This document shows, in pieces, positions 34,717 through 63,459 of a stretch of 64,000 bases of DNA. The DNA lies in assembly GCA_044892525.1 (NCBI GenBank), contig CM097885.1, positions 242,420,001 to 242,484,000 on the forward strand, in the 5' to 3' direction. Below the pieces are notes generated by a model. That model was given only the letters and a program-made list of their open reading frames with translations. It ran no database searches and had not been told where the DNA came from. This DNA comes from Schmidtea polychroa (Eukaryota). The translations under genes and the position numbers were made by a program. The number at the start of each line of letters is the position of its first letter. The stretch's first letter is position 1.

Positions 34717-34727
34717 TACGATGAGTC

Positions 34728-39236: not shown

Positions 39237-39254
39237 TGGGGGCTCAGCCGGGAT
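39237..39254 (+). promoter_or_regulatory. Primer-binding site, tRNA-Pro type
   Basis: TGGGGGCTCAGCCGGGAT matches the classical tRNA-Pro PBS TGGGGGCTCGTCCGGGAT at 16/18; lies 7 nt after the LTR end. Confidence 0.85.
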
Positions 39255-39521: not shown

Positions 39522-40007
39522 ATGACGGAATTCGCAGAACAGATGCAACAATTAATTAATTTCATTAATATAGAAAACGACCCTATTAGAACACTCATAC
39601 AAAAAAGAAAGCGAATCAACAGCATTCTACTCCAAGCAATCGGACACACACCAGTCGTACCTAATCACGTGTTATTGGCCGCAGGTTTAAGCCACTCAGA
39701 TGAAAAGATAAATCACGAAACAGTATATCAATGGTACCTAAAACGACTAAAAAACCCGGCCCTAAATCTAGAATACGAGCGAATAAAAGATCAACTACAT
39801 ACAATATCAGAGGCAATCGAACAAAAGATACAAGAGAAACTCACCAAATTACGAACCTGTCTGTCTTGCAATCTTCGCCCTATACGCATACTATTCTTAC
39901 CTTGTGGACACCTCAGTCATTGTGAAGAATGCGTGAAAGATCTGAAACGATGTACAATATGTAAAAATGGGATAAAAGAAACCCATATGGTTTATTATGG
40001 TGATTAA
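39522..40007 (+). CDS. IAP-type C-terminal RING (C3HC4) protein without BIR domains
   Basis: C-x2-C-x11-C-x-H-x3-C-x2-C-x6-C-x2-C at the extreme C-terminus (CLSC..LFLPCGHLSHCEEC..CTIC), the spacing of cIAP/XIAP-class RINGs; strong acceptor TTTTTTCTTTTCGCAATAG two nt before the ATG. Confidence 0.85.
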   Translation: MTEFAEQMQQLINFINIENDPIRTLIQKRKRINSILLQAIGHTPVVPNHVLLAAGLSHSDEKINHETVYQWYLKRLKNPALNLEYERIKDQLHTISEAIEQKIQEKLTKLRTCLSCNLRPIRILFLPCGHLSHCEECVKDLKRCTICKNGIKETHMVYYGD

Positions 40008-41707: not shown

Positions 41708-42825
41708 ATGGAAGAAGATACAGATAGCGACATCTCCAACTTCGAACGAATCACCGATATATTCAACCTCATAGTATTAGCAGCCATCTGTCAAGGACTA
41801 GTAAATCTCCTCAGAATCGCAGTAGCAGACTCATACCGAACAATTTACGAAGGAAACTTCATCAGAACCCAATCCACCCAATTCAGTAGCCGCTAATTAC
41901 AAGGAAGCGTAAGAAAAGAATCACGGATAAACCCCATCTCAGATCATCGAGTAAGTCAGGCGACGTATTATTTTCAGGAGACGAATTACAACAACTCAAA
42001 AGAGGACGATCTATTAAACATCAAAGAGGAATATCACAAGGAGCAAGAAGAACCAATCAAGTACCCATATTTGACCAAGAAAATCCCGGATATACCCCTA
42101 GTCGATCTCGAAGCAGAGAAAGTCTGTCCGATATCACTAATAGTTTAGCAACGTCAACCGAAGAATTATCAGCCCAAAGTTTAGTCACATCGTTAGATAA
42201 TTTAAAAGAAACAGACGAATCTAGAACACCAATCATGACGAATGTCGTAAAAACCGACGAGTATAAAGAGAAGTTCAGAGGAGAACCGTTCAATGGAAAT
42301 GCAAACAAGTTAGCAACGTTTATAACTAATTTTGAAGTTTATATCACGGTGTGTGGATGGACACCCGAAGCAATTAGCAAAAGGATGCCGTTGTTTTTGT
42401 GCGATAGCGCATTAGAAGTATATTTAGAAGCTAAAGAGAGAGATACGAAATTAGAGAAGTGGGAAGATATCAAAACATTCTTGAAGAAAACCTTCGGAGC
42501 CAGTAAGCCAATCAACCAGGCGTTGGGCGAACTAGCAAATAGGAAACAAAGAGCAAACGAATCGATAACATTATATGCCAGTGAATTACGGAGATTAGCG
42601 AAGAAAGCAATGAATGGAAAATTACCCGAGGAAAATTTGATCGGCTATTTCATAGAAGGATTACGCCGAGAAGAAGTAAGAGCCTCAGTAGGTTGTCAAA
42701 TGTGCAAAACGTTAGAGGAAGCCATAGATTGGGCTACAAGATGCGAGCTCCACCTTCCAGCTCAAATGAATATTATGCAAGAAGATGGGAGGAGAGCGAC
42801 AGCAACAATCAGGAACCGAAAATGA
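41708..42825 (+). CDS. gag: Gag N-terminal region and capsid domain (5' part disrupted)
   Basis: FNGNANKLATFITNFE..W..F..RKQRANESITLYASELRRLA..FIEGL fits a Ty3/gypsy capsid; the capsid frame is open from 41890, and an upstream ATG ORF at 41708-41896 is in another frame. Confidence 0.85.
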
Positions 42826-44807: not shown

Positions 44808-46030
44808 ATGATGTAGTCATGATGTACGATAAAATAATATTACGAGCGGAGGACGACACCTCGTTGAGCGAAATGGGTATGTGGGACGATCATCAGATAA
44901 TCAGGATAGTACCAATGGATGAATTTCGAACAAGAGACGTAACATATCAAAAAGAAATACGAGACCGGATGAAAACGTTATATCAAAAATCTACAGAAAT
45001 AATTGAAATTCACCAACAATGGTTAAAAGAAAAGGAACTACAAGGAAAAATCACGAAACTAAGTACCAGATCCTGCAGACGAACCCCATGGGAAAGAGTG
45101 TGGAATACAGAAAATAAGGAATGGGAAATCCGGAAAGGAATCTTCGTAGAAACAGACATTGGTGAGACAGGAAGTGAATCGGAGGAAGAAGAAGAGGAAC
45201 CTCCAGAATATGAAGAGGAAGCAAGGGGACAGACATCAGATGACGAAAGCGAGACGGACGTCACGTCAGAAAGCGAAAATGAAGCGAGACATATTCATGC
45301 AATGCGGAAAAAGGAACGTGAATATGCCGATATGGACGGCGAGGAAGCGATAAAAGCAAGAGAACGAGAAGAGAAAGAAAGATATAAACAATTAGGCGAT
45401 ATCTTAGCAATGGGAGCAAAAAATCAAAAACGCCAAGTAGTAGCATTGGCTAACATCATCTTAAAGACATCAGAGAACATCCACAATCTGAGAGGAATGG
45501 GAAAGGCAATAGAGGAATACCGGCAATATAATGAATGGTATCCAGAACAGCTAGAACAAATTATTCGAAAATGGAGAAATCAGGAATGGGCACAAGACAC
45601 CCAGGAGAGGTATCACATCCGAATCAAGTATCCGGACAAGAGCATCGAGGAACTAGAGGTGCATCCAACAACAAAGATTAGAGAATTAAAAAAGAAATTA
45701 GCATATGAAACTCCATTCCATCTGCAACTATTCGGAAAATCACTAGACGATAATGCAGACGTCGGAATAACACCCATGAGATTGGAAGAGACGAATGTGT
45801 TAACAATGGCGGAAACGTTGGGAAAACCGTTGAAAAGGAAAAGCAAAATTAATAAACCAACAAAAGGCAGTTTGAGTACTCCAAGTCCGAACAAAGCACC
45901 AAGTAAATCTAATGAAACTGAAGAAGTCGAAGAGATTATCCTCGAAGATAGCGACGATGAACCAGGAGAAAGATCACCGCTATTAGTGAGATGGCCGACA
46001 GGAGCCGAAATCATCAGATGGATCATGTAA
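44663..46030 (+). CDS. Polyprotein continuation: rest of Ubl2, acidic PPEY region, ubiquitin-like domain 3
   Basis: IRIKYPDKSIEELEVHPTTKIRELKKKL..LFGKSLDD aligns by eye to ubiquitin [36 protein letters not shown]; -1 shift from the previous ORF near 44770-44800. Confidence 0.75.
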   Translation: MENHKFDSQIWKVKRNPATEVRNNHMVTERRETTNKKKVRSESSDGMVDDVVMMYDKIILRAEDDTSLSEMGMWDDHQIIRIVPMDEFRTRDVTYQKEIRDRMKTLYQKSTEIIEIHQQWLKEKELQGKITKLSTRSCRRTPWERVWNTENKEWEIRKGIFVETDIGETGSESEEEEEEPPEYEEEARGQTSDDESETDVTSESENEARHIHAMRKKEREYADMDGEEAIKAREREEKERYKQLGDILAMGAKNQKRQVVALANIILKTSENIHNLRGMGKAIEEYRQYNEWYPEQLEQIIRKWRNQEWAQDTQERYHIRIKYPDKSIEELEVHPTTKIRELKKKLAYETPFHLQLFGKSLDDNADVGITPMRLEETNVLTMAETLGKPLKRKSKINKPTKGSLSTPSPNKAPSKSNETEEVEEIILEDSDDEPGERSPLLVRWPTGAEIIRWIM

Positions 46031-47470
46031 CGGAGGTACATATACGATCCGAGGCGAGGTGATATCAGGAGTAGTAGTGATTGAGTCCTATACGGTTGAA
46101 TTAAAAGAATACGAAGCGCAATTCGACGCAAATAATTATCAAATGAAGACCAACCCAGCATGTAGAGCTACGGAAAATGTATGCAAGACAGGAGTATCAA
46201 CTATAATCTATGAAGCTAATACCCAAAAATGCCGACTTCAACTGTTAAAAAGTGCTTTGTTTAACGAAGTAAAAGGAGAAATTTACGAGAACGAAAATGA
46301 CGAGGATGGAAACGAAAGAGTGAGAATGCGAAATGGAAAACCAATGCCACCATCTCCCAGAGAAAAAAGACTCTCAACGCAGAAAACACCAACAGCACTA
46401 ATCACCGACGATCCAGATCTAGGTATGAGATTTATCAATGAGAAAGAAACCACCAAATGCGACAGTATAGTATATAAAACCAATTACGCGGGTATCTATA
46501 TGTCGAGACAAATAATCGATAGAGCAGTGGGAAAGATAGCAACGGAGGACGTAAAACTATACTTATATGCAAATAATAAAATGGACTTTCTGTTTCATCG
46601 TGGCCAGACGACGTTGCAAAAAGTATATTACGATCTTATACAAAACGATTGTTCATTGAATAAAGAAATACTGAAAACAAAGCTGGCTATTGCGATAACG
46701 CACCCAGATAACACGATGCCATCACTCCCCTTACCAGATGGACATTTTGGTAGAATGGTAGGAGAAGTGATGTACACATACCAGTGTACCAAGACGTATG
46801 CACGAATGCCCGAAAAATCCACACTACCCGAAAAGAAATGTGCAAATGAATTAGAGATTCGTTATAAAGGACAAAATCGATTCGTCCAACCAGTCACCAG
46901 AATTATGAACCCAGTAGGCTTCTACCCAAATCTATTTAACTGTTCTAATGCGTACGGACCATTGTATGAAAGACCAGATGGAAAATGGGTAATGTTACCA
47001 GTAAAGTCTGTAACTGAGGAACCCAAAAAGTTCGGATTAATAGAACTCGCCACAGAGTTGGATTTCAAACCTATAGACGTGTCAAACGGTGGTATGTATT
47101 CGGCAGAAGATTTAGAAACGGCTCGGCTTAACGTATTATTCCCAGCAAGGCGAGAATCTATATTGTCGAACATGGTCACAATAACTGGGGGAACGAATTA
47201 CCAATCAGGCCCAAACTATGAACTACTGCTGTCACCAGACCATTTTCAACAAGCAACCTCAAATATGATGAAAGCAATGTGGGGAAGATTCTTAGTTTTT
47301 GGACAAATGATGGCCGGAATATTGGGGATCATACTCATAATTCAGATAGTCAGAGTAATACTAACACAAATGTTAGCTTGTTTTGATATATACAAGCGAG
47401 AAAAGAAAGTGAATTGGAAAATGATAGTAGGATTTCTACCATTCCTAGCTAAAACTATGGTGTTACATGG
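45990..47470 (+). CDS. env: Chuvirus-like (class III, gB-related) fusion glycoprotein domain, N-terminally truncated, in frame with pol
   Basis: Collinear motifs GSCNGGTY..GVVV, C..TENVC..STIIY, KLYLYANNKMDFL, LIQNDCSLNKEIL, GEVMYTYQC, CANEL..RFVQPVTRI, GGMYSAEDL..VLFPA and WGRFLVFGQMMAGILGIILII(TM), as recalled for chuvirus-type glycoproteins. Confidence 0.82.
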
Positions 47471-49805
47471 TCACTCAAAGGACATTCATCGAATAAAACG
47501 ATTGATTAAAATATTAACGAAGATTAAAGGAACCGACGAAGAAGTAGGCAGACGATTCCGGAAAGTAATGTACGATGAAGCAACAAGACGACAACTGAAA
47601 AAGAATAAGCCAAAATTTTTGGACCGATTCAGAAGTCAATCATCTAACAGCGATAGTGACGACGATGATAACGGGAACGATAAATGTCTATATCCAAACA
47701 GAAACCCAAACGAAAAACCAATGGAAACAGCACCATATTGGGAAAAGGAAAAGACAAACCCCTGGATCGCCAATGGAAGCTATATACCACCGGATATCGT
47801 GGGACCACAAGCCGCTTTGACCATGACACAAAATATGTATCCGCAATTACCGAGTCAACCCGGTATGCATTATATGCCAACGCGACGTACCAAAAGCGTA
47901 GATCAAGCAGATGACGTACGAACAATAGCAGCAATGAATTTACCTGGAGGTCCAGCAGTGACAGTCATGATTCAAATCAATGGTAAAGAAACCAATGCTA
48001 TGATAGACACAGGAGCTAATGTATCAGCGATAGCGATTAATCAAATTCCCAGTAAGCACTGGAAAGATATCGAATCAACAACAATCCACATCATAGCATG
48101 TAGTAAAGAAACAGTGGACGTGGTCGGAAGATGGTGGACTACATTGAGATACCAGGACAACGAAATTGAAACGTATTTGGCAGTAATACCAAAACTTAGC
48201 GTACCATGCATAATCGGAACGGATTTGATGCCAGAATTATTAAAAGAAGTGGTAATTGACTTAACAACCATGTGCTTAAAAGACAGAACAGGCAGAATAT
48301 GCAAAATGAATGCCATAATCAGATGTCCAGAGAAAATTGTGGTACCAGCAAAATCGCAGATGATTTGTCAAATAAAAGTGGATACGGGTATGGAAGGAGA
48401 AGTTATCTTTGAGCCAAGCAAATCATTCGAAAAGCGACGAGAGTTACCCCTCGCCAGAGAAATAATAACAATAAACCCAGAAGGGGTGATACCGATCAAC
48501 ATCACAAATTTTGAAGAGGAAGACAAAATCATCTACGAAAATGAAAGATTGGGAAAATTAACTCCAATGATCAATATCGAATTACCAAAAGTGACCAACG
48601 AGATGACCAAAGACGACGAATTATGGACAATCGACAGTACATTGTTAACGGATGCTGAAAGGAGAAAATTGCACCGATTATTAGTAGAATATAAAGATAT
48701 ATTCGCCATCTCAGATTTAGATTTGGGTACATGCGATGTTACCCTACATGCAATACCACTCATAGACGAAACCCCAATTGCATTGAGACCATACAAGCTA
48801 GCAGAAATGCAAAAAGAAATAGCCGAAGCAGAAGTACAAAAAATGTTAGACGCAAAAGTGATCGAACCAAGTTGCTCACCTTGGCAATTCCCAGTGGTCA
48901 TGGTGAAAAAGAAAGATGGCACCCAACGATTCTGTATCGATTATCGAAAGTTAAACGCAGTAACCAAGAGAGATACCTATCCATTGCCGGACATCAATGA
49001 AATGTTACTCATGTTGCAAGAGGCAGCATATTTTACTTCTTTAGATTTAAAAAGTGGATACTGGCAGATTAAAGTCAAAGATGAGGACAAAGAGAAAACA
49101 GCTTTCACGTTGGGACGAGATCTATATCAGTTCAGAAAAATGCCATTCGGACTGACCAACGCACCAGCATCATTTCAAAGGTGTATGAACTTTGTCACTC
49201 ATGGAATCAAACAATGTATGGTATATATTGATGATTTGTTAATCTATTCAGCGACATTTGAACAACATCTGGAGGATATCCGAAACGTATTTATTAGATT
49301 AAGACAATGGAAACTCAAGCTCAAACCCTCAAAATGCGATTGGGCAAAGGAAAAAGTCACGTTTTTAGGACACATAGTGTCAGCTAAAGGAAAGGAGCCA
49401 GATCCAAGAAACATTGAGAAAATAAAAACATGTCCAGCACCGAAAACTGTCACCCAAGTTCAGGAATTTCTAGGATTATGCGGATACTACCGCAAATTTA
49501 TCAAAAATTATGCAGGAATTGCAAAACCAATCCAGGAATTAGTAAAGAAAGACATTTCGTTCATTTGGGAAAAGGAACAACAAGAGGCGTTTGAAACGCT
49601 GAGAGACAAACTAATCGAAGCACCAATCCTCGTACACCCAGATTTCAAGAAGCCATTTCTATTAGCAACGGATGCAAGCGGGTACGCGGCAGGCGCGATT
49701 CTGGGACAATTAGACGACGAAGGTAAAGAGAGAGTAATCGGGTATTACAGTCGAACATTCAAAAAGCACGAGAAGAACTATTCGGTAACAGAACGAGAAG
49801 CATAG
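46059..49805 (+). CDS. pol: Env-PR-RT-RNaseH(5' part) continuous ORF ending at a premature TAG
   Basis: Protease IDTGAN at 48003-48020; RT PWQFPVVMVKKKDG..RFCIDYRKLN, MPFGLTNAPASFQR, YIDD at 49224; RNaseH LATDASG..ERE; TAG at 49803 replaces L of EREALA. Confidence 0.97.
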   Translation: MISGVVVIESYTVELKEYEAQFDANNYQMKTNPACRATENVCKTGVSTIIYEANTQKCRLQLLKSALFNEVKGEIYENENDEDGNERVRMRNGKPMPPSPREKRLSTQKTPTALITDDPDLGMRFINEKETTKCDSIVYKTNYAGIYMSRQIIDRAVGKIATEDVKLYLYANNKMDFLFHRGQTTLQKVYYDLIQNDCSLNKEILKTKLAIAITHPDNTMPSLPLPDGHFGRMVGEVMYTYQCTKTYARMPEKSTLPEKKCANELEIRYKGQNRFVQPVTRIMNPVGFYPNLFNCSNAYGPLYERPDGKWVMLPVKSVTEEPKKFGLIELATELDFKPIDVSNGGMYSAEDLETARLNVLFPARRESILSNMVTITGGTNYQSGPNYELLLSPDHFQQATSNMMKAMWGRFLVFGQMMAGILGIILIIQIVRVILTQMLACFDIYKREKKVNWKMIVGFLPFLAKTMVLHGHSKDIHRIKRLIKILTKIKGTDEEVGRRFRKVMYDEATRRQLKKNKPKFLDRFRSQSSNSDSDDDDNGNDKCLYPNRNPNEKPMETAPYWEKEKTNPWIANGSYIPPDIVGPQAALTMTQNMYPQLPSQPGMHYMPTRRTKSVDQADDVRTIAAMNLPGGPAVTVMIQINGKETNAMIDTGANVSAIAINQIPSKHWKDIESTTIHIIACSKETVDVVGRWWTTLRYQDNEIETYLAVIPKLSVPCIIGTDLMPELLKEVVIDLTTMCLKDRTGRICKMNAIIRCPEKIVVPAKSQMICQIKVDTGMEGEVIFEPSKSFEKRRELPLAREIITINPEGVIPINITNFEEEDKIIYENERLGKLTPMINIELPKVTNEMTKDDELWTIDSTLLTDAERRKLHRLLVEYKDIFAISDLDLGTCDVTLHAIPLIDETPIALRPYKLAEMQKEIAEAEVQKMLDAKVIEPSCSPWQFPVVMVKKKDGTQRFCIDYRKLNAVTKRDTYPLPDINEMLLMLQEAAYFTSLDLKSGYWQIKVKDEDKEKTAFTLGRDLYQFRKMPFGLTNAPASFQRCMNFVTHGIKQCMVYIDDLLIYSATFEQHLEDIRNVFIRLRQWKLKLKPSKCDWAKEKVTFLGHIVSAKGKEPDPRNIEKIKTCPAPKTVTQVQEFLGLCGYYRKFIKNYAGIAKPIQELVKKDISFIWEKEQQEAFETLRDKLIEAPILVHPDFKKPFLLATDASGYAAGAILGQLDDEGKERVIGYYSRTFKKHEKNYSVTEREA

Positions 49806-50950
49806 GCTATAATACAAGCTATCAAACACTTCCGATATTTACTATGGGGACATGAGATATGTATAACCACAGATCACCAACCATTAGTGTGGTTAGGGCA
49901 ACATAAAGAAGCGTCCAGTAGACTGATGAGATGGGCCATGCAATTGCAAGAATACTCCCCATTTATAAAATTCAAAGCGGGAAGAGCAAATGCCAACGCC
50001 GATTGTATGTCAAGATTTATTTTTCCAGATTTGGTGGATTCAGAAATGCAACGCATATGCTTAATAGTAGCGGAAGATTTAGATTTCTGTCAATTGCGAA
50101 AGGACCAACAAGAGGACGCAGAATTAAAACAAATTATCGATTATGTAAAAACCGGAAAGACGGAGGTATATGCGAAAGATCAAAAATTAAAAGAACATAT
50201 GGATAAACACCGACACCGATATATTATAGAGAAAGATTGGTTGCTGATAATGGATGGAGAAAAACGATTAATGTGTATACCGGAAAACCGACGAAAAGAG
50301 TTACTAACGCAATATCACGATGGGAGATTGGGAGGACATATGTCATCAAAAAAGACGTTAGCAAGAATGAAACAGAAATATTTTTGGCCAACCCTAACGG
50401 AAGACGTAACCGAATGGGTGAAAAACTGCCTAACCTGTGCAACAAGGAAAAACACTGGATCGAAATGGAAAGCACCTTTGACGCCAATGCCGGTACCAAT
50501 AGAGCCGATGACAATGATATCAATGGACGTAGTTGGTCCATTACCGGAATCGGATAGAGGAAACGTTTATATTTTAGTGATTACAGACTTTCTCACGAAA
50601 TTTCCAGAAGCATTCGCGATGCCAGACCAAAAAGCTAAAACAATCGCAAAAATCTTAGTCGAAGAGATATGTTGCCGTTACGGAACACCGAAGCAAATCT
50701 TGACTGATCAAGGAACTAATTTTATGAGTGAGATAATGAGCTAAGTAACAAACTATTTCAAAATCGCAAAACTAAGAACATCTCCATATCACCCTCAAAC
50801 CAATGGGATGACGGAAAGATTTAATGGAACACTTATACAAATGTTATCAAACTACGTCGATCGTCACCAACGAGATTGGGATGAATACATAAATATATGT
50901 CTTATGGCTTACAGAATGTCAATTCATGCATCAACGAAAATGAGCCCATG
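49806..50950 (+). CDS. pol: RNaseH 3' part and integrase HHCC + DDE core (internal TAA at 50742, small deletion near 50949)
   Basis: TDHQPL; H-x6-H..C-x2-C (HDGRLGGH..CLTC); MDVVGP, TDQGTNF, GMTERFN; the frame continues past the stop into TSPYHPQTNG. Confidence 0.95.
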
Positions 50951-53900
50951 AGAGAGTGCAACATGCCAATGGACCTGGAATACCAACCACCGATATCGCA
51001 ATACATGGAGATAGATGATTATGTTACGAAATTCAAGGAAAGAATGCAGGAGATTTGGGAAACTGCGGGATTAAATATCAAGTTCTACCAGGAAAGTTAT
51101 AAAGATTTACACGATCGAAAGAAAAACGTGAAGCAACATACGTTTCAAACAGGCGATTGGGTGATGATCGAGACCCCAGAATTAATTCCCGGAACCACAA
51201 GAAAGTTACAACGGAACGGAAAAGGGCCATATGAGATCTTGTTCGTAGGCGAAACCAATGTAAGAGTAAAATTGGTAAATAATCCATTCACCAGGCCAAT
51301 ATACGTAAACGTGGCACGATGCAAATCAATTCCAAAAACAGCCACCAGTCAACCAGAAGGCCGTACATTAACCACACGTTCGCAAACCTACAGAATGAAC
51401 ATGATGCAACAACTCGCAGAACCTATCACTGGACGATTGGGCATACAACCATCGGAAGCCGAAAAAATCGTACGAGAGGTAAAGATAAAATTACCCGGAT
51501 GGGCAAAAGATCGATTAGATTTCGAAATATTAGGAGGATTATTGACGATGATCGAAAACTATGCAAACAGAGAGAGGACACATCCGTTATTGCGAGTAGT
51601 TAAAAGTCAATGGCCAATATTATTTACAATAACAGATCATTATGGAGACACACCATTACACAAACTCATGAAAGTAGGTAACAACGAGCAAATACTAGAA
51701 ACAATAGAAGTATTTCACGACTGCAAGCGATCAACAGAACAAGAAAACAACCAAGGCTACACACCATTAATGATAGCAGCAAACAGAGGCAAAACAAAAG
51801 ACATTATAACCGCATTACTTGATACTGGATCAAAAATAACTACACAAGACCACGAGCGGAAAAACGCACTACATCATGCTATCGAAGGGAAAAGTACCGA
51901 GGCGTTCACGTTGTTGATGGAACTACTATCATATGAGGACAATCGAGAAGTCGGAAACATGTATGATGGATTATTAACAGCGATCAAAGAGAAACTGACA
52001 ACAATTACCGGAGTATTAATCACTTGGAGAAACCCAATTAAAAATAATTATATGGTCAACGTAAACGAAGCATTCACGAGAGGAGAGAACACGCTTATGA
52101 GAGAAGCTATGAAAGGACATCATTTATTCGAAATCCCGAATCAATTACTAGAACGAGGAATAACCTTCACAAATCATAAGGATGAGCAGTTATTAAAAAA
52201 GCGAATTGACACATTCGAAAAATCAATATTCCAATTCATTACTCAGGTACGAAATAAATATTGGGAAACGGTAAGTGTGTTATACATGATGGACACGATG
52301 AACAACATCCGCGAGAATTACCTAGATATTATCCAAATACTTACCGCAGAGGAACGAATCAATAATCCAACCGGAAAGAAAATGAAAATAAGGCATGGGA
52401 AATCAAGAGAACCAAAGTCGCAAACGAACCAAACGATCGCAAATAAAGTCATCGAAACAAAATCAATGAGTGTAGATCAAAGAGCAATAATATGCAAAGC
52501 GAAAGAAGTGTTCTTTGAGGAAATGCTAGAGCTCTCAGATGAAATAATATTATCAGAAATAATAAAAACCGTGCATACATATGCAAGAGATCAAACAACG
52601 AATTTGGACATCGGTAAAATCAAAACCTTCTTGCCCCGAGCATTTACGATGGTAACGAAGGATTTCAGAACACCACTACAACAGGCAATATTAGCAGCGA
52701 AAGAAAATAGAGCAATAACGATCATGAGAATCCTTAGGGATATGGGCGAGGAAACCAACACGAAAAATGAACAAGGCGAAACCGCCATGATGTATGCAGC
52801 TATAACGAAAATACACCCAAAAACCCTCCACATACTACATCAATCAGGATCGAGACTAGACGAAAAGTCAAACGAAGGGAACTCCACTATGGACTGGGCA
52901 ACCATACAGCCTAATTTAGAAATGATCAGATTTATTTGCAAAAATGCGACAAGAGAAGAAGTTGAAAATATATGCAAAAACACAGCTCAATTTCAATGGA
53001 ATACGGTACGGAAAAATCTAGAAGCAATGAAATTATTATTAACATGGAGAGTACCACAAAATAATAAATATGCGATAAATGTAAACGAATTCTACGAAAA
53101 CGGAGAAAACGCGATGGTAAAGAATACATTAACTAAAGGGGGGACACCAAAAATTATTTTAATAGTATTAAACAGAGAAGACCTCAAATTCACGCAAAAT
53201 CAGAACGAGCAACAACGAATTGGAAAACATCGTCGTATTCAATTGAGAGAATTAGTCAAAGAATGGAATAGAAAGAGACATGCTGCAACGGGTAGAAAAG
53301 AGTTTGAATTCGAAGCAAAATTAGCAAGGAACAGAGTGTTAACAGCATATCGCAGATTATTGAACGATATAAATGTCGAGGACGACATTTTAAACGACAG
53401 CGGGGGAGATAAACACGATGACAATGACGGAAAAGGCCGAAAGGAGGATAAAGGGAAAAGAGAACCGGAAGAGGATAAACCGGAAAACAAGGATTCGGGT
53501 ACGAGAAGAGAGGGAAACAGCCCGGGAACCAAGACCAAAGAGGAGGAAAAACCGAATAATGGAAAACAGAGGGTATGCCTACCTTTCACTAACAAAGAAA
53601 TAGAAACAAATATGATCATAATGATAATCATGCTAACCATGATAGAGTTAGTAACAGCTCATGGAGGGACGAGAACGATAAAAGAAACCAAAGAAGCGGA
53701 GAATCAAGATAGCAAAGAGGAAGAACTAAAACAAGAAAAGAAAAAGCAAGCACAAGAGCAGCAGTGGGATTTAAAGGAAGAATGGGGCCTAAAGAAAAGG
53801 TGCATACTAGGAAGATGTATGTCTAGAGCGTATCAGAGATTAGTACTGATAAATGAGGACACAGAACCGATAACAGAAGTAAGAATACAAGAAGTATACC

Positions 53901-54613
53901 GAAATCGAGACGGGAAGAGAATAACGAACGTTAAAGGAAAAGAGGTGCACCTAGGAAAAGGTGGTGAAGTAGTAATAACGCAGCTCCAACCAAGAAAAGA
54001 ACACAAAGTCTGTATTTCAAGATTAGGACCAGGTGAGAGATGCCATCAATATGTGACGCAGCAGCAGCCCCCGAAAGAATACACGGTTTGTATCTGGAGG
54101 AACGAATCAAAAAGGGAATGCCGACGATACCCGGGGAAAAGAGGGAAGAAAAGAAAAAACCACGACGAAAAGGACGAAGGAGGAAAGCACAAGAAAACCG
54201 GCGAGGAAGCTCAGGACAACTATGTTTCGGAGGAAGAGATGGGAAAAATACAAAAGATGGCAAAGGAGGGTATGAACGAGGAAATAGCAAGAATACGAGA
54301 GATGATGAAAGGAAATGGCAAAAGAGGAAACGAGAAAAGTACAGAAGCGATATCAACATTAACAAACAAGGAAAAACCAGAGAGTATAAGCGTGAAGCAG
54401 ATGATGTGGATCAGCGGGATAATAATAACAGGGGCATTCCTAATCATAACGGGGGGAACAATAAAAATAATTAAAGATAAACGACATCGCGGAGAACTAG
54501 AGATGACCCGAATCAGAAATTTCCAACATCGAGTGAAACGACCAAGTGATATCAAACAAGAACAGTGGGTGGAGGCCTGGAACGCTCAGCGCCCTCCAAA
54601 CTCACGTATATAG
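50897..54613 (+). CDS. Integrase C-terminus (GPY) fused to two ankyrin-repeat modules, a signal-peptide-like segment, an FN3-like domain and a C-terminal TM
   Basis: KGPYEI; GDTPLH, GYTPLMIAA, KNALHHA (51632-52160); RTPLQQA, GETAMMYAA, GNSTMDWA (52655-53180); MIIMIIMLTMIELVTA (53612); VVITQLQPRKEHKVCI; MMWISGIIITGAFLIITGGTI (54401). Confidence 0.88.
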   Translation: MSYGLQNVNSCINENEPMRECNMPMDLEYQPPISQYMEIDDYVTKFKERMQEIWETAGLNIKFYQESYKDLHDRKKNVKQHTFQTGDWVMIETPELIPGTTRKLQRNGKGPYEILFVGETNVRVKLVNNPFTRPIYVNVARCKSIPKTATSQPEGRTLTTRSQTYRMNMMQQLAEPITGRLGIQPSEAEKIVREVKIKLPGWAKDRLDFEILGGLLTMIENYANRERTHPLLRVVKSQWPILFTITDHYGDTPLHKLMKVGNNEQILETIEVFHDCKRSTEQENNQGYTPLMIAANRGKTKDIITALLDTGSKITTQDHERKNALHHAIEGKSTEAFTLLMELLSYEDNREVGNMYDGLLTAIKEKLTTITGVLITWRNPIKNNYMVNVNEAFTRGENTLMREAMKGHHLFEIPNQLLERGITFTNHKDEQLLKKRIDTFEKSIFQFITQVRNKYWETVSVLYMMDTMNNIRENYLDIIQILTAEERINNPTGKKMKIRHGKSREPKSQTNQTIANKVIETKSMSVDQRAIICKAKEVFFEEMLELSDEIILSEIIKTVHTYARDQTTNLDIGKIKTFLPRAFTMVTKDFRTPLQQAILAAKENRAITIMRILRDMGEETNTKNEQGETAMMYAAITKIHPKTLHILHQSGSRLDEKSNEGNSTMDWATIQPNLEMIRFICKNATREEVENICKNTAQFQWNTVRKNLEAMKLLLTWRVPQNNKYAINVNEFYENGENAMVKNTLTKGGTPKIILIVLNREDLKFTQNQNEQQRIGKHRRIQLRELVKEWNRKRHAATGRKEFEFEAKLARNRVLTAYRRLLNDINVEDDILNDSGGDKHDDNDGKGRKEDKGKREPEEDKPENKDSGTRREGNSPGTKTKEEEKPNNGKQRVCLPFTNKEIETNMIIMIIMLTMIELVTAHGGTRTIKETKEAENQDSKEEELKQEKKKQAQEQQWDLKEEWGLKKRCILGRCMSRAYQRLVLINEDTEPITEVRIQEVYRNRDGKRITNVKGKEVHLGKGGEVVITQLQPRKEHKVCISRLGPGERCHQYVTQQQPPKEYTVCIWRNESKRECRRYPGKRGKKRKNHDEKDEGGKHKKTGEEAQDNYVSEEEMGKIQKMAKEGMNEEIARIREMMKGNGKRGNEKSTEAISTLTNKEKPESISVKQMMWISGIIITGAFLIITGGTIKIIKDKRHRGELEMTRIRNFQHRVKRPSDIKQEQWVEAWNAQRPPNSRI

Positions 54614-54773: not shown

Positions 54774-55133
54774 ATGGAGCAAGGAAATAACGAAATGAAC
54801 CACAACACAGTAACCGAAGAATTATGGAAGCAACAATGTGCCGTATTAGCACAATTAGTGTCTAATTTGCAAGAACAAGGATTGACGATGCAAAAGAACC
54901 TAATCGAGAGTATGAACAGAGGATTTAGTTATTTGAAGATAATTGAAGACCAGAGGTTAAAAATCGAACAAATGCAAAGAGAAATAGAGAGGATAACCCA
55001 ATATAGCCGAAGACAGGAAATCGAATTGGACAGAATGATGGAGGAAGCAGAACAGACAGAAATAGAAGACTGGTCAGAATGGCTTATGAGTAGAGAGGAG
55101 GGCGGACACGAAGCCGACTCTTCCGAACCATAA
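54774..55133 (+). CDS. Accessory coiled-coil ORF A (about 119 aa)
   Basis: ATG at 54774, heptad-like Q/E/L pattern, acidic W-containing C-terminus, same codon style as the polyprotein. Confidence 0.65.
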   Translation: MEQGNNEMNHNTVTEELWKQQCAVLAQLVSNLQEQGLTMQKNLIESMNRGFSYLKIIEDQRLKIEQMQREIERITQYSRRQEIELDRMMEEAEQTEIEDWSEWLMSREEGGHEADSSEP

Positions 55134-55218
55134 ACCAAACCTAGCTTAAAATGTAAATAATTGTAAATAAAATATCGAACCTGTATCGATAAGAACTATA
55201 TGTATATATAATTATAGA

Positions 55219-56607
55219 ATGGATAAACGACAAAGAGAAGAGTTCAGAGAAATTGTCGAACAAGTCCGAAAATCTACAACGATCAGAGTACACAAACATG
55301 TTATGTGCGGAATATGTGAAAAGTTGCTAAAAGAACCCCACCAAACCCTATGTGGATGCAGATTATGTAAGGAATGTATCAGTGAAGCAATAAAGAATAG
55401 ACCACAGTGGTGCCCGGTGTGTAAAGAGACACTAATATCGAGTTTAGAAGACACTAACGAGGATAAAGCCGCAGTGAAAGACATGTTAAACACCAATCTG
55501 GGATGCAAAAATACCCCATGCGAATGGAAAGGAGTAATATGGAAAGTAGTGCAACATATGGGAGAATGTATGTACAGAATCGGCCAGTGTGAAAGGTGCC
55601 ATAAAACCATTCGAGCAAGCGAAGAAAAAGAGCATCAAAGCCAGTGTGAAGAGAGACTAGAAAGATGTAAACATTGTGGAGAAATAGATACGTGGAAAAA
55701 TCTCACCAGCAAACATCACAATGTCCAAGAGGAAAAGGTATGTGCAGAGTTCAGTGGGGAATGCCCGAACGGATGTGAGGAAGGGAGAATAATAAAAATA
55801 GCCCAGCACCTAAAAGAATGTGAGAAGAAAAGAATGATATGTGTACTAGGTAAATGGGGCTGTCAGAAACTACTACACCGAGGAGAGTTACCACATCATT
55901 TAGTAGAAAATGCTTCAACTCACGCAGAAAGGTGGTCGACTGCGCTACAAGAAAGTGAAGAGAAAGTAAAACAAATGGAGATAGAGATAACATCGTTGAA
56001 AGTGTTAGTCAAAGAACTACTAGAAGAAAGAGAAGCGTTCGAAGAAGCCCGAGCTAACATAAAGATGCAAATAAATCGTATAGAAATCAGCAATAATCAG
56101 GCCAAGGTGCTACATCAAAAGATAACTGAGATAAATCTAAATGAAGTAATACCAACAGCACCCTACGTGTGGAAAATAACGGGAGTGAAAGAAAAAATAC
56201 GAAAAGCCAAAACCGGAGAAGAGACAAAAATAACGAGCCCCGCATTCCAGTCTTGGAAAAATGGGTACAAAATGAAAATGAAGATATATCCCAACGGGGA
56301 CGGAACCGGATTAGATACACCCTTTTCGGTTTTCTTTCTTTTATGCAAAGGAGAATACGACGAAATAATAGAATGGCCGTTCCAGGCGAAGATCGACATC
56401 GCACTAATGAATGACCGAAACATCCACGAACAAAGCTTCAAGACAACGGGAAACCAAATGTGTTACCAGAGACCTACGGAAGAAGAAGGATCAGCAACGG
56501 GAGCACCTACGTTCATCCTACAACAAAAAGTAGAGGATATGGCGAGAAATAACACAGTATATATCAAGATGACTGTGAGGAAAGAGGGGAAGGGTAGAAC
56601 GGAGTAA
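55219..56607 (+). CDS. TRAF: Full-length intronless TRAF-family protein (RING - TRAF zinc fingers - coiled coil - MATH)
   Basis: CGICEKLL..CGCRLCKEC..CPVC; repeated C-x2/3-C..H..C fingers; coiled coil; MATH YVWKI..SPAF..GYKMKMKIYPNGDG..KGEYD..WPF..YQRP..G.PTF. Confidence 0.96.
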   Translation: MDKRQREEFREIVEQVRKSTTIRVHKHVMCGICEKLLKEPHQTLCGCRLCKECISEAIKNRPQWCPVCKETLISSLEDTNEDKAAVKDMLNTNLGCKNTPCEWKGVIWKVVQHMGECMYRIGQCERCHKTIRASEEKEHQSQCEERLERCKHCGEIDTWKNLTSKHHNVQEEKVCAEFSGECPNGCEEGRIIKIAQHLKECEKKRMICVLGKWGCQKLLHRGELPHHLVENASTHAERWSTALQESEEKVKQMEIEITSLKVLVKELLEEREAFEEARANIKMQINRIEISNNQAKVLHQKITEINLNEVIPTAPYVWKITGVKEKIRKAKTGEETKITSPAFQSWKNGYKMKMKIYPNGDGTGLDTPFSVFFLLCKGEYDEIIEWPFQAKIDIALMNDRNIHEQSFKTTGNQMCYQRPTEEEGSATGAPTFILQQKVEDMARNNTVYIKMTVRKEGKGRTE

Positions 56608-56746: not shown

Positions 56747-57544
56747 ATGAATAAAAATTTTTCCATGATAAAAAGATTGATCGATATCTATGATTTAGAA
56801 ATGACACAAGAGAAAATAACCGAAACTACGATAGCCCCAACCAATATCAACAAGACACAAATTCCCCGAGAATATAACGAAAAATGGAACAAAGTAATGT
56901 TCCAACTAACTAATCTCACCCGAAATCACATCGAAGAAGCTAGAGAGGATGAGAACAGTAAATATCAATGGCTAATACACAATTTAAGAGAGGAAGCAGA
57001 AGCATGTAAAAGAGCATCAAAATGGGCGTCATTAGAAAATACCCGCCAAGAAGCGCACAGCCACTACTTAAAGCAGCTGGTGCAGGAAGCGAGAAAGAGG
57101 CTCACTGACGAAAACGCAAAACGCGAAGCGGAAAAGCAAATAGAAGGGAGGAGAATGATGCACTTATTGGCGGAAGCCAGGAAATGGAAAAGACGAAACA
57201 ATGAAATGGAAAAAGAGATGAAAGAATTGCCCATGAGACTCAGATATGAAAGTGAACAGGGAAAATGGGAGGAAAATTTAATAATAAAGGAAGAATTGAA
57301 ACGGTTGAGAAAGGTCGCCGCCCGTAGCCAAACTTGGCAAACAAAAGCCATGGAATTTGAGCGACATTTGGCAATAAAATGCGACATAAGAGAGCACGAG
57401 AACGCCGCAATGGAAGAGATGATAACCCAACAAGCAGGACGGGTTGTGGAATTAGTGAATCAGGTCGTAGAGATGAAAAGAGACCTTAATGGATTACAAG
57501 GATCGCTGGAACAAAGAAACATGGTCCTAGCTGGAAAAAAATAA
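56747..57544 (+). CDS. Accessory coiled-coil ORF B (265 aa)
   Basis: Uninterrupted E/K/R/A-rich helical ORF; no family recognised. Confidence 0.7.
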   Translation: MNKNFSMIKRLIDIYDLEMTQEKITETTIAPTNINKTQIPREYNEKWNKVMFQLTNLTRNHIEEAREDENSKYQWLIHNLREEAEACKRASKWASLENTRQEAHSHYLKQLVQEARKRLTDENAKREAEKQIEGRRMMHLLAEARKWKRRNNEMEKEMKELPMRLRYESEQGKWEENLIIKEELKRLRKVAARSQTWQTKAMEFERHLAIKCDIREHENAAMEEMITQQAGRVVELVNQVVEMKRDLNGLQGSLEQRNMVLAGKK

Positions 57545-57566
57545 AAAATTAGAAAACGAGAGGAAA

Positions 57567-57857
57567 ATGTATACCGAAAATATTAAAAACTTGGAAATAG
57601 AAATTGAAAAATGGAAGGGCGACGAGAAAATCAAGGCCCTAGACAGACAAATAGAGGCGAAAGACGAAGAGACAAGGTACCTCACCTATCTGCTCGACGA
57701 GGAATTGAATATCACTAGAGCATTAGGAGATGAAGTCCATGAGTTGAGAGCCCAAATTCCCCAATATTACATACCTTATGACCCTATTGCTATCCAGCTG
57801 CAGGCATCGGTCGAGAGCGATGAGGGATACGTGGGCCAAGAGGAAACCTTCGTATAA
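57567..57857 (+). CDS. Accessory coiled-coil ORF C (96 aa)
   Basis: Short helical ORF 22 nt after ORF B; no family recognised. Confidence 0.55.
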   Translation: MYTENIKNLEIEIEKWKGDEKIKALDRQIEAKDEETRYLTYLLDEELNITRALGDEVHELRAQIPQYYIPYDPIAIQLQASVESDEGYVGQEETFV

Positions 57858-57978
57858 AAGGGATCAAAAAGATAAAAAACTAAAAATCGGGACGTATATC
57901 CCAAACAAAAAAAAAAAAAATTAAAGTATTGTAAAAGTATTCAAGGGATTGTAACCCAAACTATTAAATTTTATATAA

Positions 57979-58743
57979 ATGTATATGTATAAGTCGCACT
58001 ATAGCGCACCATTAACTGTACATATTATAGATATGAAAATCGAGGAAATAATAGAAATTATGAGCGACGTAGAAGAGGGAGAGATTGAGGCAGAAACAAC
58101 AGAAACACAAACGTTAAAGGCCGAGTTACAGGAAGAGAAGTACGAAAACGAGAGACTTGTAAACAAATATATAGAAGACCGAAAAATGATTAAAATACTA
58201 AAGAAGGAGTGCGAAGTGCTAGGAGAAGTAAAAAGAGAAGCAGAAGAAGAAAATGAATGGCTACAAGAACAACGAACACGAGGAAGAAATTGGGAAAAGA
58301 TTGCAGAGGAACTATGGCAAGAGAGGGCAAGCTTCAAAGCAGAGGAAGTAATCCAAGACTATTGGAAAACAGAGGCGAAGGAACGCCAAATAACTATAAA
58401 TAAATTAAATCGACAATTGGAAGAAAAACAACGAGAAAGTGAGGAAATGAAGAAATGGATTCGCAAATACCAAGAGATCGAGAGAAAACAACAACAACAA
58501 CAACGAAACCTTTCGCAAGAAAACGAACAAGATTTCCTACAAATCGAACTAAAAAGGAATCTCGATAACAAACGGGAAGAAATTAGAAGACTGGAGAAGG
58601 AAATAAGGCGCATGAAAAGGGAGGCCCGTGAAAAGGACAGACAGTTGGAAATGCTGCCCGAGTTAAGACACAGGGTCATTAAAGCGGAATCCACCTTGAT
58701 GAGAATCGCCGAAAATAACCCAAAATCAGAACCATTAAATTAA
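57979..58743 (+). CDS. Accessory coiled-coil ORF D (254 aa; start may be ATG 58033)
   Basis: Long E/K/Q/R heptad-rich ORF; no family recognised. Confidence 0.7.
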   Translation: MYMYKSHYSAPLTVHIIDMKIEEIIEIMSDVEEGEIEAETTETQTLKAELQEEKYENERLVNKYIEDRKMIKILKKECEVLGEVKREAEEENEWLQEQRTRGRNWEKIAEELWQERASFKAEEVIQDYWKTEAKERQITINKLNRQLEEKQRESEEMKKWIRKYQEIERKQQQQQRNLSQENEQDFLQIELKRNLDNKREEIRRLEKEIRRMKREAREKDRQLEMLPELRHRVIKAESTLMRIAENNPKSEPLN

Positions 58744-58779
58744 GGGTCACTAAAACCAATTGTAAATAAAACATAATGA

Positions 58780-59448
58780 ATGTATAATAGTATCATGCGA
58801 GGCGAGATGATGATAACAATGATGGTATTGATGATCCTGATGGAGAGCAAACAAATAAACGCCCAACCGAAAATCGTACGAGATTACCGAAATCAAAATC
58901 AAGAACCTAAACAAGAATCCGGCCAATGTACATGCCCTATGACAGTAAAAACCCATATCATCCAAACCATTCAATCAACCCGATCACACATCAACAACAT
59001 CCAAACAATGTGTAAAAAGAATCCCATTTGTAAAATGATAAACCAACAAATCCTCGAACAAATCCAACAATTCGACCAGTTGGAACAACAAATACAACAG
59101 GAGAATTTTGGAAATCTTGTAGAAAAGCCAAAAACAATTCCCGAAATCAATGACACCCATTACCTCATATATATAGTGATCGCAGAGACCCTCCTCCTAT
59201 GTCTACCAATACTCATGAAAATTTACGAAGTTAGAAATAGATGTAGAATCTCGACATCAATAAGAGTAACCTCAAACCAGAATCCTCAAGAAGTGCCCCT
59301 GACAAATCGTAACCCAACCCCATTCCGACCTCGAACCCCGAGTAATCAACCAATCCAGCCGAATTCCTATAGTCAGACCTATCTCAACATCAATACCCAA
59401 ACCAACCAACAGCCGCCAGCAGAAGCATCAATGGTTAACAGTTCATAA
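58780..59448 (+). CDS. Accessory type-I membrane ORF E (signal, CxC, coiled coil, TM, P/N/Q-rich tail)
   Basis: MMITMMVLMILMESKQINA (58807), QCTCP, Q-rich coil, YLIYIVIAETLLLCLPILM (59161). Confidence 0.75.
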   Translation: MYNSIMRGEMMITMMVLMILMESKQINAQPKIVRDYRNQNQEPKQESGQCTCPMTVKTHIIQTIQSTRSHINNIQTMCKKNPICKMINQQILEQIQQFDQLEQQIQQENFGNLVEKPKTIPEINDTHYLIYIVIAETLLLCLPILMKIYEVRNRCRISTSIRVTSNQNPQEVPLTNRNPTPFRPRTPSNQPIQPNSYSQTYLNINTQTNQQPPAEASMVNSS

Positions 59449-59665: not shown

Positions 59666-62600
59666 TGTTGGGCTGAGCCGAAGGGTAACTGGGAAATCAG
59701 GTTAAACTTAACTAAAATAAAATAAAAAATAAAATAAATAGATTGACGAAAAAAATAAAATAGAATATAAGAAAAAGCAATAATTAGAAAATAAGAATTA
59801 AAACAAAAAATATAAAAATAAGAACAATTAAATAGGACAATAGAATGACGAAAAATAACGTAAAATGTAGCAGATAACAAAGAAATTAAGGAAAATAAAT
59901 AAAAACACAATAAAAATAAAGAAAATAGGAAGAAATAACTCAAAAACAAGAAAAATAAATTAAATTAATAAAATAAGGCGGTACTCAATTCTGATTGGTC
60001 CGCATAAACGAAAAATACCTATATAAGTAAACCGCAAACTCACTATAGTCAATGTTAAAACCAAACCAATTACAGGTAAGAAATAGTATTAAGTAATGTT
60101 AAATGTTAAAACCAAACCAATTACAGTTACAGGTACTCGACTATCCAGACAATCAACCGACACTCAGACGACTATTAGGAACAGTTCTATCGACGATCCA
60201 TTCATATAACCGATTTGATTAGTGTTTATTTCGGCTCAGCCTTTGGAATCACCGAATTTTTCAAACGATAAGTAAGGATGTGTTGCTATTGTAAAATTTG
60301 GTAAATGTTTTTCAAGGATTAAATATCTTATTATATTAACGTAACATTTGAATAAAACTTCTCCATTCAATCTAAATTTTTTAATGGTAATATAGTTTCG
60401 TGAGTTAATTTAAAAGCTAATGATATATGAATATTTATGATATGTTTTGTCATCGAACGTATTGATTATGATAAAATTATATTTGAGAAACGTGGAGTTG
60501 AGGAGACCCACGCCATGGTGTGAGGAGCCTTCGGGAGCTCAGCCGGCGGGTGTGGATCTCTTCAATCACGCAGCTGACGTGGGCCGGAATGTGGGGGTTT
60601 CCTCACGGGTCCGTCGCTGAAGGAAGTAAAATGCTGCAAGCACGAGTTTAAAGTATAGAGGAATGCATTCCAATATTGAAAAGTAGAGTAATCTTAATTG
60701 AAAATGACTGAGGTGGCTACAAATTCTTATTAGACATCACACTCTGAAATTTCACCCGACATCAGAAATCGTATACTTGCATCAACTGACACTCTATCTT
60801 CTAGTGGCAAAATATTCTTCTATCAAAACTCACGTCAATAGAGAAACTGAGTACTAATATGTTCATTAAGTGTAAAATCATAATATAGGAAGCATAAACG
60901 AAGATTTATTCAACAAAAATTTTAGTGCGAATATATTTTTCAACAAACCCTTTAATTTTTTTTCATTTCTCCTGAAAATCTACAATAGTGGCAACATGAA
61001 GTTCTTTCTGTAAACGACACTTTCGACCAATATAGGTGAAACTCTTTTGAATGAGTTGCTGTAAATATCCACGAAATCATAACATCCAAATTGAAAACGG
61101 AGGAAACTGCACATCATGAGAATAAATTTCAACGTCCATGCTCGATGAGAACTAATCATAGGTAGCATATTGAATAAACGAAATAAATCTAACTCGCTGT
61201 GTGAGATGATCAGCTGTAACCCTTTAACGTAGATAATGAGAGAGCATACGAGACCAGTCACACGCATTACTACACATAAATACACGCTTACATATGCCAC
61301 ATGCATTATTTTCCCAGTCAGCTAATGACGCTGAGAATAAAAGTTGAAGTATACGCACACGACGTAATTAACTCCGATCGATATCTAACTTTCAGATTCA
61401 TGTTGTTAATGATTTCTACGAGTGAGCTATGCATTACCGGATGACTGTTATCAATTAGCTAGATTTTATAGATTAATTGCACAAGTAAATTCCATAACAA
61501 AAATGAATAGATCGATTTTTAGGATAGGAATAAAATTCTAATCATACTCGAATCCTTAAAAATCTAATGGTAGCACAGTGATTGAATAGGTTTTCGATTT
61601 TCATATACCAATATGAGTTACGATTTGAGGTAATTAATTTAAGGAGCATTCCCGCGGCACTAGAGAACTTTGTTTTTACGTTTTTAAAGATAAATATCTG
61701 TATTCGAAAAGTTATATGTAAAAATGAATATTAATTATTTAATTATGCAAACATTCTAATGTTTCCTAAACAATTTCTACGAAAACGATAACTCTAACGA
61801 TCACTGGGTCAATACATTTGCGAGTCATCTTTCCCCTAAATATTTGAGAATCTCAGATAACAATAGGTAACGAATATTCTAAGTATAATCATAAAATTTT
61901 GGCAAAGTATTAATCAGATGTTAATTTCTCTTGCAACCCCAAATAGACATCCGAGAATTCACTGAGTGCAATTATAAAACACTATTTCTAACGGAACCAT
62001 ATCATTGACCTTTTATCCATTTTACTTAATTTTTCGAAATTAATAAATGATCATGTCCCATGCTGGTTCAGTAGAAATCGCTGATCTTAATTCTTATTCT
62101 CATTGTTTTTTCTTTGTTACAGTTATCAAAAATGTTGCCAAGCTCGAAGCCGTCGCTCAAACCCTGTTTCTCCTGTGCCGACAAAAACACCGTAATCCGA
62201 GAATTACAGGCCCAGATCGGTCGATATAAAAAGAAGATCGACGATCTGGAAGGTACATGGTTTAGCCCAGTACAAATGAAGGAGGTACAAAAGAAATTGT
62301 ACCACAGCGAGCATTGTCGCGATGCTTTGATAAGCGAAAGTAGAGCTCAGCGTAGCCTAATCAAAGAGCAGTCCGAAGCTTTACATAAAGTTTACGTTCA
62401 AGCCGCGACAACCCGGAAGATCGTTAGTATCCCGATTAAAGAAGCGGACAATATCTTCCCCGTCCACCATGAACCTTCATTTAGTTCACCACCCTTATCA
62501 AAAAGATCTTGTCGTGAATGCGTGGAAGCCGACCTCTCCCCCAGGCCAACGGACGTACCTACTCCCGGCACCGGCAAGGTATTGCCATCAACCACGACGT

Positions 62601-63459
62601 CCTCAGAAATCTTGTCGGCCAACCCTTCGAAACCTAAACGTCGCCAATTATCCAGAGCGGAGCGTAAGAAGCGTCAACGTGAACGAGCAATCGTCAAACA
62701 ACGGGAACTATCTTCCAACCACCCAAGTACTTCGAATGATTCCCCCGTAACGATCGATCTAACTGTAGGGATCCCAGGGCGAATCATGTCTGCCGCTGGT
62801 GTGACGTGGGAGGAGAATGCCTCCGAGTTTTTTGATCTGGATGAACTATTGGCGGATGCAGAATGGGAGAAGTGAGAATCGCAACACAATACAACCGTGC
62901 AGAGTGTTAATGGACAAATAAACTATCATGACTCCTTTTCCTCTTAATCCATTTTCCACTAAGTGTACTCGTTATATAGTGCCATAATTATCTAGTGTAT
63001 TATGATAATAGAATAAAGAAATTTGTGGGTTATTTCTTGTGGTTGTTTTGATTTAAATAGTTGCTGGAAAGGTTCAGAGTAGTGTTCACAAAGTGATTCA
63101 TAAAGCGAGAGTAAATTTTGAGTTCGAGAGGCAATAGTCAATTTTGTGTCGAATTATGGGACAGGGTAGAGAGAGAATCTGATGGGGTAAACAGACGTAA
63201 GTCCTTCCATCGGCAGTCAGAAAGGGAAGTCGAGGCCTCAGTAAGGAGTAGTCCTAAGGTAGGGGCTCACCTGCTTACTGGAGTCTCGCCTGCATAGCAC
63301 ATTTCCAACGTGAAGCAATTCGCGGGTGCTATGTTGGAGGGTAAGTTGTGCGGGGTCCTGCTCCGGGTTGACACGGGCGTATGTAGCGTGATGATATGGG
63401 CACGCATCCCCTAGACAAAGACGTAGATTGAGCAGAGTCAACCGAGCGCTACCCCAGCA
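59666..63459 (+). repeat. 3' LTR (3,794 bp)
   Basis: Direct repeat of the 5' LTR, followed by ATAT. Confidence 0.98.
62132..62875 (+). CDS. LTR-encoded ORF, 3' LTR copy
   Basis: Same ORF as 37902-38645 with five amino-acid differences (R>K, G>S, S>P, A>G, W>R). Confidence 0.75.
   Translation: MLPSSKPSLKPCFSCADKNTVIRELQAQIGRYKKKIDDLEGTWFSPVQMKEVQKKLYHSEHCRDALISESRAQRSLIKEQSEALHKVYVQAATTRKIVSIPIKEADNIFPVHHEPSFSSPPLSKRSCRECVEADLSPRPTDVPTPGTGKVLPSTTTSSEILSANPSKPKRRQLSRAERKKRQRERAIVKQRELSSNHPSTSNDSPVTIDLTVGIPGRIMSAAGVTWEENASEFFDLDELLADAEWEK

Follow-up and report, generated by a model that had tools for sequence, protein, structure and literature searches.

The 64-kb window (the whole stretch of DNA analysed here) contains an LTR element of 28,026 bp at positions 35434-63459. 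Its LTRs are 99.66% identical and it is flanked by a 4-bp target duplication, ATAT, both of which indicate that this insertion is young. The features of the element are given below, each with its basis in parentheses.

35434..39229, + strand: 5' LTR, 3,796 bp, TG...CA, with ATAT at its left (LTR comparison)
39236..39253, + strand: primer-binding-site-like sequence after the 5' LTR (resemblance to a tRNA-Pro site)
39522..40007, + strand: upstream accessory ORF, 161 aa, with an IAP-type C-terminal RING and no BIR (ORF, Pfam)
42235..54613, + strand: polyprotein, in six pieces in the window copy (ORFs, Pfam)
54774..55133, + strand: accessory ORF A, 119 aa (ORF; 32% identity to the ORF before the sister-family TRAF)
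55134..55218, + strand: conserved spacer with two TGTAAATA motifs (55152, 55162) and an AG right before the ATG (comparison of copies and with the sister family)
55219..56607, + strand: full-length TRAF gene, 462 aa (ORF, Pfam, structure model and fold match)
55306..55422, + strand: all-cysteine (C8) RING, aa 30-68 (copy alignment, TRAF6 comparison)
55504..55923, + strand: five TRAF-type zinc fingers, aa 96-235 (Cys/His spacing)
55912..56142, + strand: predicted coiled coil (TRAF-N), aa 232-308 (structure model)
56164..56577, + strand: MATH/TRAF-C domain, aa 316-453 (Pfam, structural alignment, Foldseek)
56747..59448, + strand: four more accessory ORFs of 265, 96, 254 and 222 aa (ORFs; no convincing Pfam family)
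59666..63459, + strand: 3' LTR, 3,794 bp, followed by ATAT (LTR comparison)

The polyprotein comprises, in order, Gag, CCHC knuckles, a mononegavirus-like fusion (env) domain, protease, RT, RNase H, integrase and ankyrin repeats, and six accessory ORFs lie downstream of it, the TRAF gene being the second. Pfam revealed no BIR domain in the ORFs of the window element, and MATH is absent from the polyprotein both in the window and in the four copies that cover that region (4/4). We take the sequence at 39236-39253 to resemble a tRNA-Pro primer-binding site; ARAGORN predicted no tRNA in the 64-kb window. A strong polypyrimidine tract and an AG precede the RING-only, IAP-like ORF at 39522-40007, which sits between the primer-binding site and gag, and tandem 74-bp repeats occupy the leader between this ORF and gag (40559-40871). 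Each LTR contains a 247-aa ORF without a Pfam match (37902-38645 and 62132-62875), and there is no clear polypurine tract immediately 5' of the 3' LTR (59630-59665). Just to the left of the LTR element, positions 33230-34723 hold an inverted-repeat element, whose 166-aa ORF by eye resembles the N-terminus of a Tc1-type transposase.

Burro1/GYPSM1 and Burro-2 to -4 are giant gypsy-like LTR elements of planarians (PMC6431247). We assigned the window element to the Burro type by this published description, on the basis of its giant size, its long 3.8-kb LTRs, the target duplication, an env-like fusion domain that separates gag from protease, the PR-RT-RH-IN order and the ankyrin repeats. The single long polyprotein typical of the group is broken in the window copy; across copies, the protease-to-ankyrin frame is open in 19 of 40. 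The polyprotein MATH and the BIR ORF that characterise Burro1/GYPSM1 do not occur in the window family.

A reading of the sequence alone had described an intact, 462-aa TRAF with RING, zinc fingers, coiled coil and MATH inside a retroelement, and the ORF, Pfam, the structure model and the LTRs agree with this description. The frame at 55219-56607 (+) has no stop and no frameshift. Its MATH domain (aa 316-453) was recognized by Pfam with an E-value of 2e-24, both PF21355 and PF22486 scoring far above cut-off, and the C3HC4 RING (aa 30-68) gave a weak match slightly below cut-off (E 4e-4). Pfam zf-TRAF had no match at E≤0.01, and the count of five fingers is a reading of the Cys/His spacing by eye. 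The N-terminus aligns with RING-ZF structures of TRAF6 and TRAF5 (E 2e-14). An AlphaFold model (pLDDT 83, pTM 0.37) combines a single helix (aa 232-308) with a beta-sandwich like that of TRAF2/3 (Foldseek E 3e-17), and the helix region aligns to the TRAF3 coiled coil. The protein thereby combines the parts by which TRAFs are recognized, namely a MATH sandwich, a predicted TRAF-N coiled coil, and an N-terminal RING followed by fingers. The RING core reads CGCRLC, as the sequence-only reading had stated, and departs from the canonical C3HC4 ligand set by a Cys in place of His; the eighth ligand is a Cys, compared with an Asp in TRAF6.

The TRAF gene belongs to the element family and not to this one insertion. 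A search of the same genome with the TRAF gene returned at least 92 near-full-length matches of 89-100% identity (92 of 2102 candidates scored), 84 of these 92 being free of stops, and element flanks surrounded all 30 copies that were fetched. Exact patterns of ORF A and of TRAF were found at 151 and 94 places, respectively, compared to 0 for the reversed controls. As a sample chosen without regard to TRAF we used the first 40 listed of the 151 ORF-A 20-mer places. TRAF was present in 39 of the 40 copies, in 38 of them at 95% cover or more. TRAF is a fixed accessory gene of the element family.

The contrast between a lesion-free TRAF and a broken neighbouring pol, to which the first reading had also pointed, exists in the window copy, where TRAF is unbroken and the polyprotein has five breaks, but it is no more than chance would give: given five breaks, a stretch as long as TRAF would be expected to carry 0.56 lesions (P(0) = 0.57). 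Frames were intact in 29/38 sampled copies for TRAF, 27/34 for PR-RT and 32/37 for integrase, which shows the same decay across copies and rules out that TRAF is better preserved than pol. Where the protease-to-ankyrin frame is open, TRAF was intact in 18 of 19 copies, compared to 9 of 15 where it is not (P = 0.028, Fisher's test). The lesions of TRAF and pol thus coincide, as decay after insertion would produce.

To estimate dN/dS we aligned 34 distinct TRAF rows including that of the window, after dropping those with less than 95% cover, less than 88% identity or exact duplication of another row. Shared variation gave a dN/dS of 0.21 for TRAF (bootstrap 0.16-0.27; IQ-TREE omega 0.17), distributed as 0.13 for the RING, 0.21 for the fingers, 0.24 for the coil and 0.22 for MATH, compared to 0.045 for PR-RT; the ankyrin tail and the other accessory ORFs had values of 0.14-0.21. 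The eight Cys of the RING are invariant in 34/34 distinct copies, as are 33 of the 36 Cys/His positions in aa 1-245. Judging from these alignments, the element TRAF is under purifying selection, whose target is most likely the replicating lineages of the element and not each inserted copy, with decay setting in after insertion. A counterpoint is the private-allele dN/dS of 0.39, above the shared-variation value and below 1, which is compatible with long unsampled lineages as well as with some selection per copy. Values below 1 for private alleles could also be expected if particular inserted copies acted as host TRAF genes and were selected at their own loci, and host-element mutualism has been reported for Burro1 (PMC13465017). 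We nevertheless hold such domestication to be highly improbable, given that intact frames are about as frequent for TRAF as for PR-RT, that TRAF lesions track pol lesions, and that 0/30 examined copies lie outside element flanks.

MATH is the most variable part of TRAF and a mosaic between subfamilies (mean distance 0.095 versus 0.047; correlation with RT distances, r = 0.46 versus 0.76). Its poor correlation with RT suggests recombination between subfamilies. Among copies, the MATH part (56164-56577) is about twice as divergent as the RT or RING-finger part. Variation occurs at aa 395-442, which we presume to lie near the MATH peptide groove; the serine-rich groove stretch of TRAF3, SSSF, reads QMCY in the element TRAF and varies among copies. 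A variable, mosaic MATH, taken together with the TRAF-like proteins carried by viruses, would suit an immune antagonist. Such a protein would enter the TRAF complexes of the host or compete with them, or mark a factor of immunity or silencing for degradation, and its effect would be to damp the response to element RNA and not to favour survival. This seems unlikely to us, as the dN/dS of MATH (0.22) gives no overall sign of positive selection and, unlike in a simple RING-less decoy, the RING and all fingers have been kept.

A sister, Burro1-like family, the env-pol of which is 63-66% identical to that of the window family, carries in order a homologue of ORF A, a 487-aa full-length TRAF and a BIR-RING IAP. 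The accessory TRAFs of the two families are 28% identical. The sister family (L061-L067, L068, L080; G000 C1 and C4) also has a second TRAF-derived cargo, a MATH domain inside a 4,791-aa frame; this polyprotein MATH and the BIR-RING IAP distinguish it from the window family, which lacks both. The sister family has a homologue of the RING ORF at 39522-40007 in the corresponding position, at 25-30% identity. We considered whether TRAF serves the element itself, ubiquitinating or scaffolding its own proteins (Gag polyprotein, particles) with little host signalling. A second RING ORF in the element, the MATH inside the polyprotein of the sister family and the position of the RING as the most constrained part of TRAF all speak for such a role; we find it quite unlikely because a complete receptor-adaptor architecture has been kept in two families whose TRAFs are so distant.

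Despite the low identity of the proteins, the spacer before the sister TRAF has the same tandem TGTAAATA motifs and AG-A-ATG. Tandem TGTAAATA occurs in 37/40 copies of the window family, an AG precedes the ATG in 39/39 readable copies, and identity to the window is 0.957 in the spacer versus 0.919 at TRAF third positions. We take TGTAAATA to be a forkhead-like motif; further occurrences lie ahead of the ORF at 58780 and, singly, in each LTR. The spacer at 55134-55218 is a candidate splice acceptor or promoter. Contigs from public runs, the RNA origin of which is only guessed, cover TRAF and contain no joint into the TRAF start.

The composition of the TRAF gene is that of the element, as the A-rich codon style noted from the sequence had suggested. 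At fourfold sites it has A 0.49 and T 0.12, close to the gag, env-pol and ankyrin frames (A 0.52-0.55, T 0.11-0.14) and not host-like, the T content of seven host TRAFs being 0.26-0.41. Its RSCU correlates with that of seven element ORFs at r = 0.60-0.72, compared to r = 0.08-0.50 for the seven host TRAFs.

We then compared the element TRAF with its host relatives. In a genome family search for MATH (150 of 1551 candidates scored), the top 30 of the 150 loci lacked similarity to the element at the DNA level and had 25-35% GC. In several of the top host loci the frame runs uninterrupted from RING to MATH over 450-490 aa; such TRAFs at L069 and L073-L077 often form close pairs and all have a CGC RING. 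No gag-pol-ankyrin run was found in the 10-kb contexts of host TRAFs, which contained stray fragments only, at two loci. The CGC core is present in 8/8 aligned host single-exon TRAFs having a RING, in host tandem-array TRAFs and in three Dendrocoelum lacteum TRAFs, and a Cys occupies the core in 18 of 96 database matches with a readable core (150 matches and one cluster member). The Cys-for-His RING, put forward in the sequence-only reading as distinctive, is therefore common to host and Dendrocoelum TRAFs, which rules it out as an innovation of the element. Intronlessness had likewise been taken as special; the host relatives are single-exon too, so that it cannot serve as proof of retro-capture.

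Among the host loci compared, no gene exceeded about 31% identity to the element TRAF. A word-index protein search yielded 3271 candidates, 0 of which were scored. HMMER gave best full-length protein matches at about 32% identity, and the best named full-length relatives were TRAF-2, -4 and -5 of the triclad Dendrocoelum lacteum (UniRef names; 10 of 150 matches looked up), which makes a planarian host likely. A phylogeny with host TRAFs, which the first reading had proposed as a check, placed the element TRAF inside the C8-RING group: in the main tree of 33 proteins, a subset of a 64-row set, this group unites host single-exon and Dendrocoelum TRAFs with both element TRAFs (99/97), which form one branch (99/96) and are long and compositionally odd according to a warning of the tool. 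A mixture-model tree of the 64 rows, obtained by quick search only, gave 85 and 91, with an SH-aLRT of 91 for the join of the element TRAFs. The element branches are not resolved in a MATH-only tree, and the window MATH is slightly nearer to the MATH of the sister polyprotein (44%) than to that of the sister accessory TRAF (36-39%). Independently of the trees, the position and spacer shared with the sister family point to one old capture. The likely origin of TRAF is a single ancient capture from the all-cysteine-RING TRAF group of the flatworm itself. The proposal of an old captured host gene is thus borne out by a gene fixed in its family, about 30% identical to its best relatives and nested within the triclad C8-RING group. 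The opposite case, a TRAF confined to this copy and nearly identical to an intron-containing host gene, is excluded by the copy number and the identity ceiling. Recent passive capture of a gene without function, which we rate as practically negligible, disagrees with the distance to the best relatives, with fully element-like codon usage and with a dN/dS of 0.2, and is refuted by at least 92 family copies and presence in 39/40.

Element amplification also bears on the size of the TRAF family. Exact matches to the three element-borne MATH classes occur at 94 + 240 + 232 places, those to the two TRAF-derived cargos of the sister family being 232 and 240 (exact 18-mers), so that elements contribute heavily to MATH counts at the genome level. 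The suggestion that elements inflate the apparent family size thus holds for genomic loci but not as the whole cause, since the host has a tandem expansion of its own. Large arrays of short host TRAFs lie at L037-L060 and L121-L125 (G000 C2, about 1-5 and 105-124 Mb); these genes are intron-bearing, with a CGC or CSC RING, few fingers and MATH on a separate last exon. They form a separate clade (100/98), which rules out elements as the sole cause of the expansion. Published planarian counts, 121 domains (PMC6109357) and 282 contigs (PMC7586133), both derive from transcripts, and near-identical element copies would partly collapse in transcript-based counts. Given at least three element-borne MATH classes at over 550 exact-match places in this genome, anyone counting TRAF/MATH genes or designing RNAi in planarians should check for Burro elements.

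We propose, with a probability of roughly 60%, that the element TRAF is a pro-survival signalling adaptor and ubiquitin ligase, a role predicted from its sequence and by analogy, fixed in the family and stemming from one old capture. Its mRNA would be sub-genomic and would depend on the conserved spacer. The protein would form trimers through the coiled coil and MATH, present a changed peptide groove in MATH, and recruit an E2 by its RING, which retains an Ile and a Pro aligned with those of TRAF6 that we presume to have an E2-binding role. As adaptor and ubiquitin ligase it would tilt the host cell to survival while the element is expressed. The pro-survival direction is drawn from analogy with the IAP of the element group and from host TRAF knock-down phenotypes: the Burro1 IAP is reported to protect stem cells (PMC13465017, citing Lee 2026), and regeneration in planarians requires TRAFs, as does, according to the title of the report, cell survival (PMC7586133). 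Against this direction, one characterised viral TRAF promotes apoptosis (PMC3352826), and the window family lacks a BIR-bearing IAP.

A bolder extension, which we regard as rather doubtful, is that two Burro families each keep a complete, catalytically competent TRAF on a dedicated sub-genomic RNA by means of a cis-element older than their split, and that their hundreds of loci constitute a parallel TRAF repertoire rewiring planarian wound, immune and survival signalling. If so, some of what is studied as a TRAF expansion in planarians, certain RNAi phenotypes among it, would be retroelement biology. In the extreme form, the host single-exon C8-RING TRAFs may themselves derive from earlier retroelement traffic; the base of the group is not resolved in the tree.

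No account of a full-length TRAF kept under selection by an element came up in the literature covered; one may be given in Grohme 2018 or Lee 2026, which lie outside that scope. Passages of PMC8532177 and PMC13238120 add nothing on TRAF. MATH_TRAF_C cargo in Burro elements is already in print, including one instance on an upstream accessory ORF of a Dugesia tigrina element (PMC6431247), and, with cargo of this domain type noted in Burro elements since 2007, the finding is of limited surprise. The window element shares with the published Burro elements a size of about 28 kb, Gag with CCHC knuckles followed by an env-like fusion domain and then PR-RT-RH-IN, ankyrin repeats, cargo of the RING and TRAF types and accessory ORFs (PMC6431247). 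It differs from them in that TRAF is full length and lies downstream of the polyprotein, with no polyprotein MATH and no BIR.

Triclad host TRAFs (L069, L073-L077; Dendrocoelum lacteum) have the same domain order, a length of 450-490 aa, the CGC core and a place in the same tree group, but are only 25-32% identical to the element TRAF and have neither the A-rich strand skew nor the element context. Fold and domain order are likewise those of vertebrate TRAF2/3/5 (MATH) and TRAF6 (RING-ZF). ORF111L of the megalocytivirus ISKNV is also a host-derived TRAF in a genetic parasite; it belongs to a large DNA virus rather than an integrated retroelement and is reported to be pro-apoptotic (PMC3352826). 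The iridovirus TRAF-like entries in our viral fold search are shorter than the element TRAF (206-296 aa). The best match to the TRAF model in the viral library was an unnamed 368-aa protein, A0A346G469 (E 1e-26, 22% identity), ahead of the iridovirus TRAFs. In maintaining an entire TNF-receptor adaptor/E3 ligase, the retroelement resembles a complex virus with an accessory gene. The nearest parallel is B-IAP of Burro1, a captured cell-death regulator on a Burro element (PMC13465017); in the sister family an IAP lies directly behind TRAF. B-IAP is a different gene, absent from the window family, and its function has been tested (PMC13465017), whereas the element TRAF is known from sequence. Beside this reported anti-apoptotic IAP, TRAF offers a second testable handle on the life of such elements in regenerating animals.
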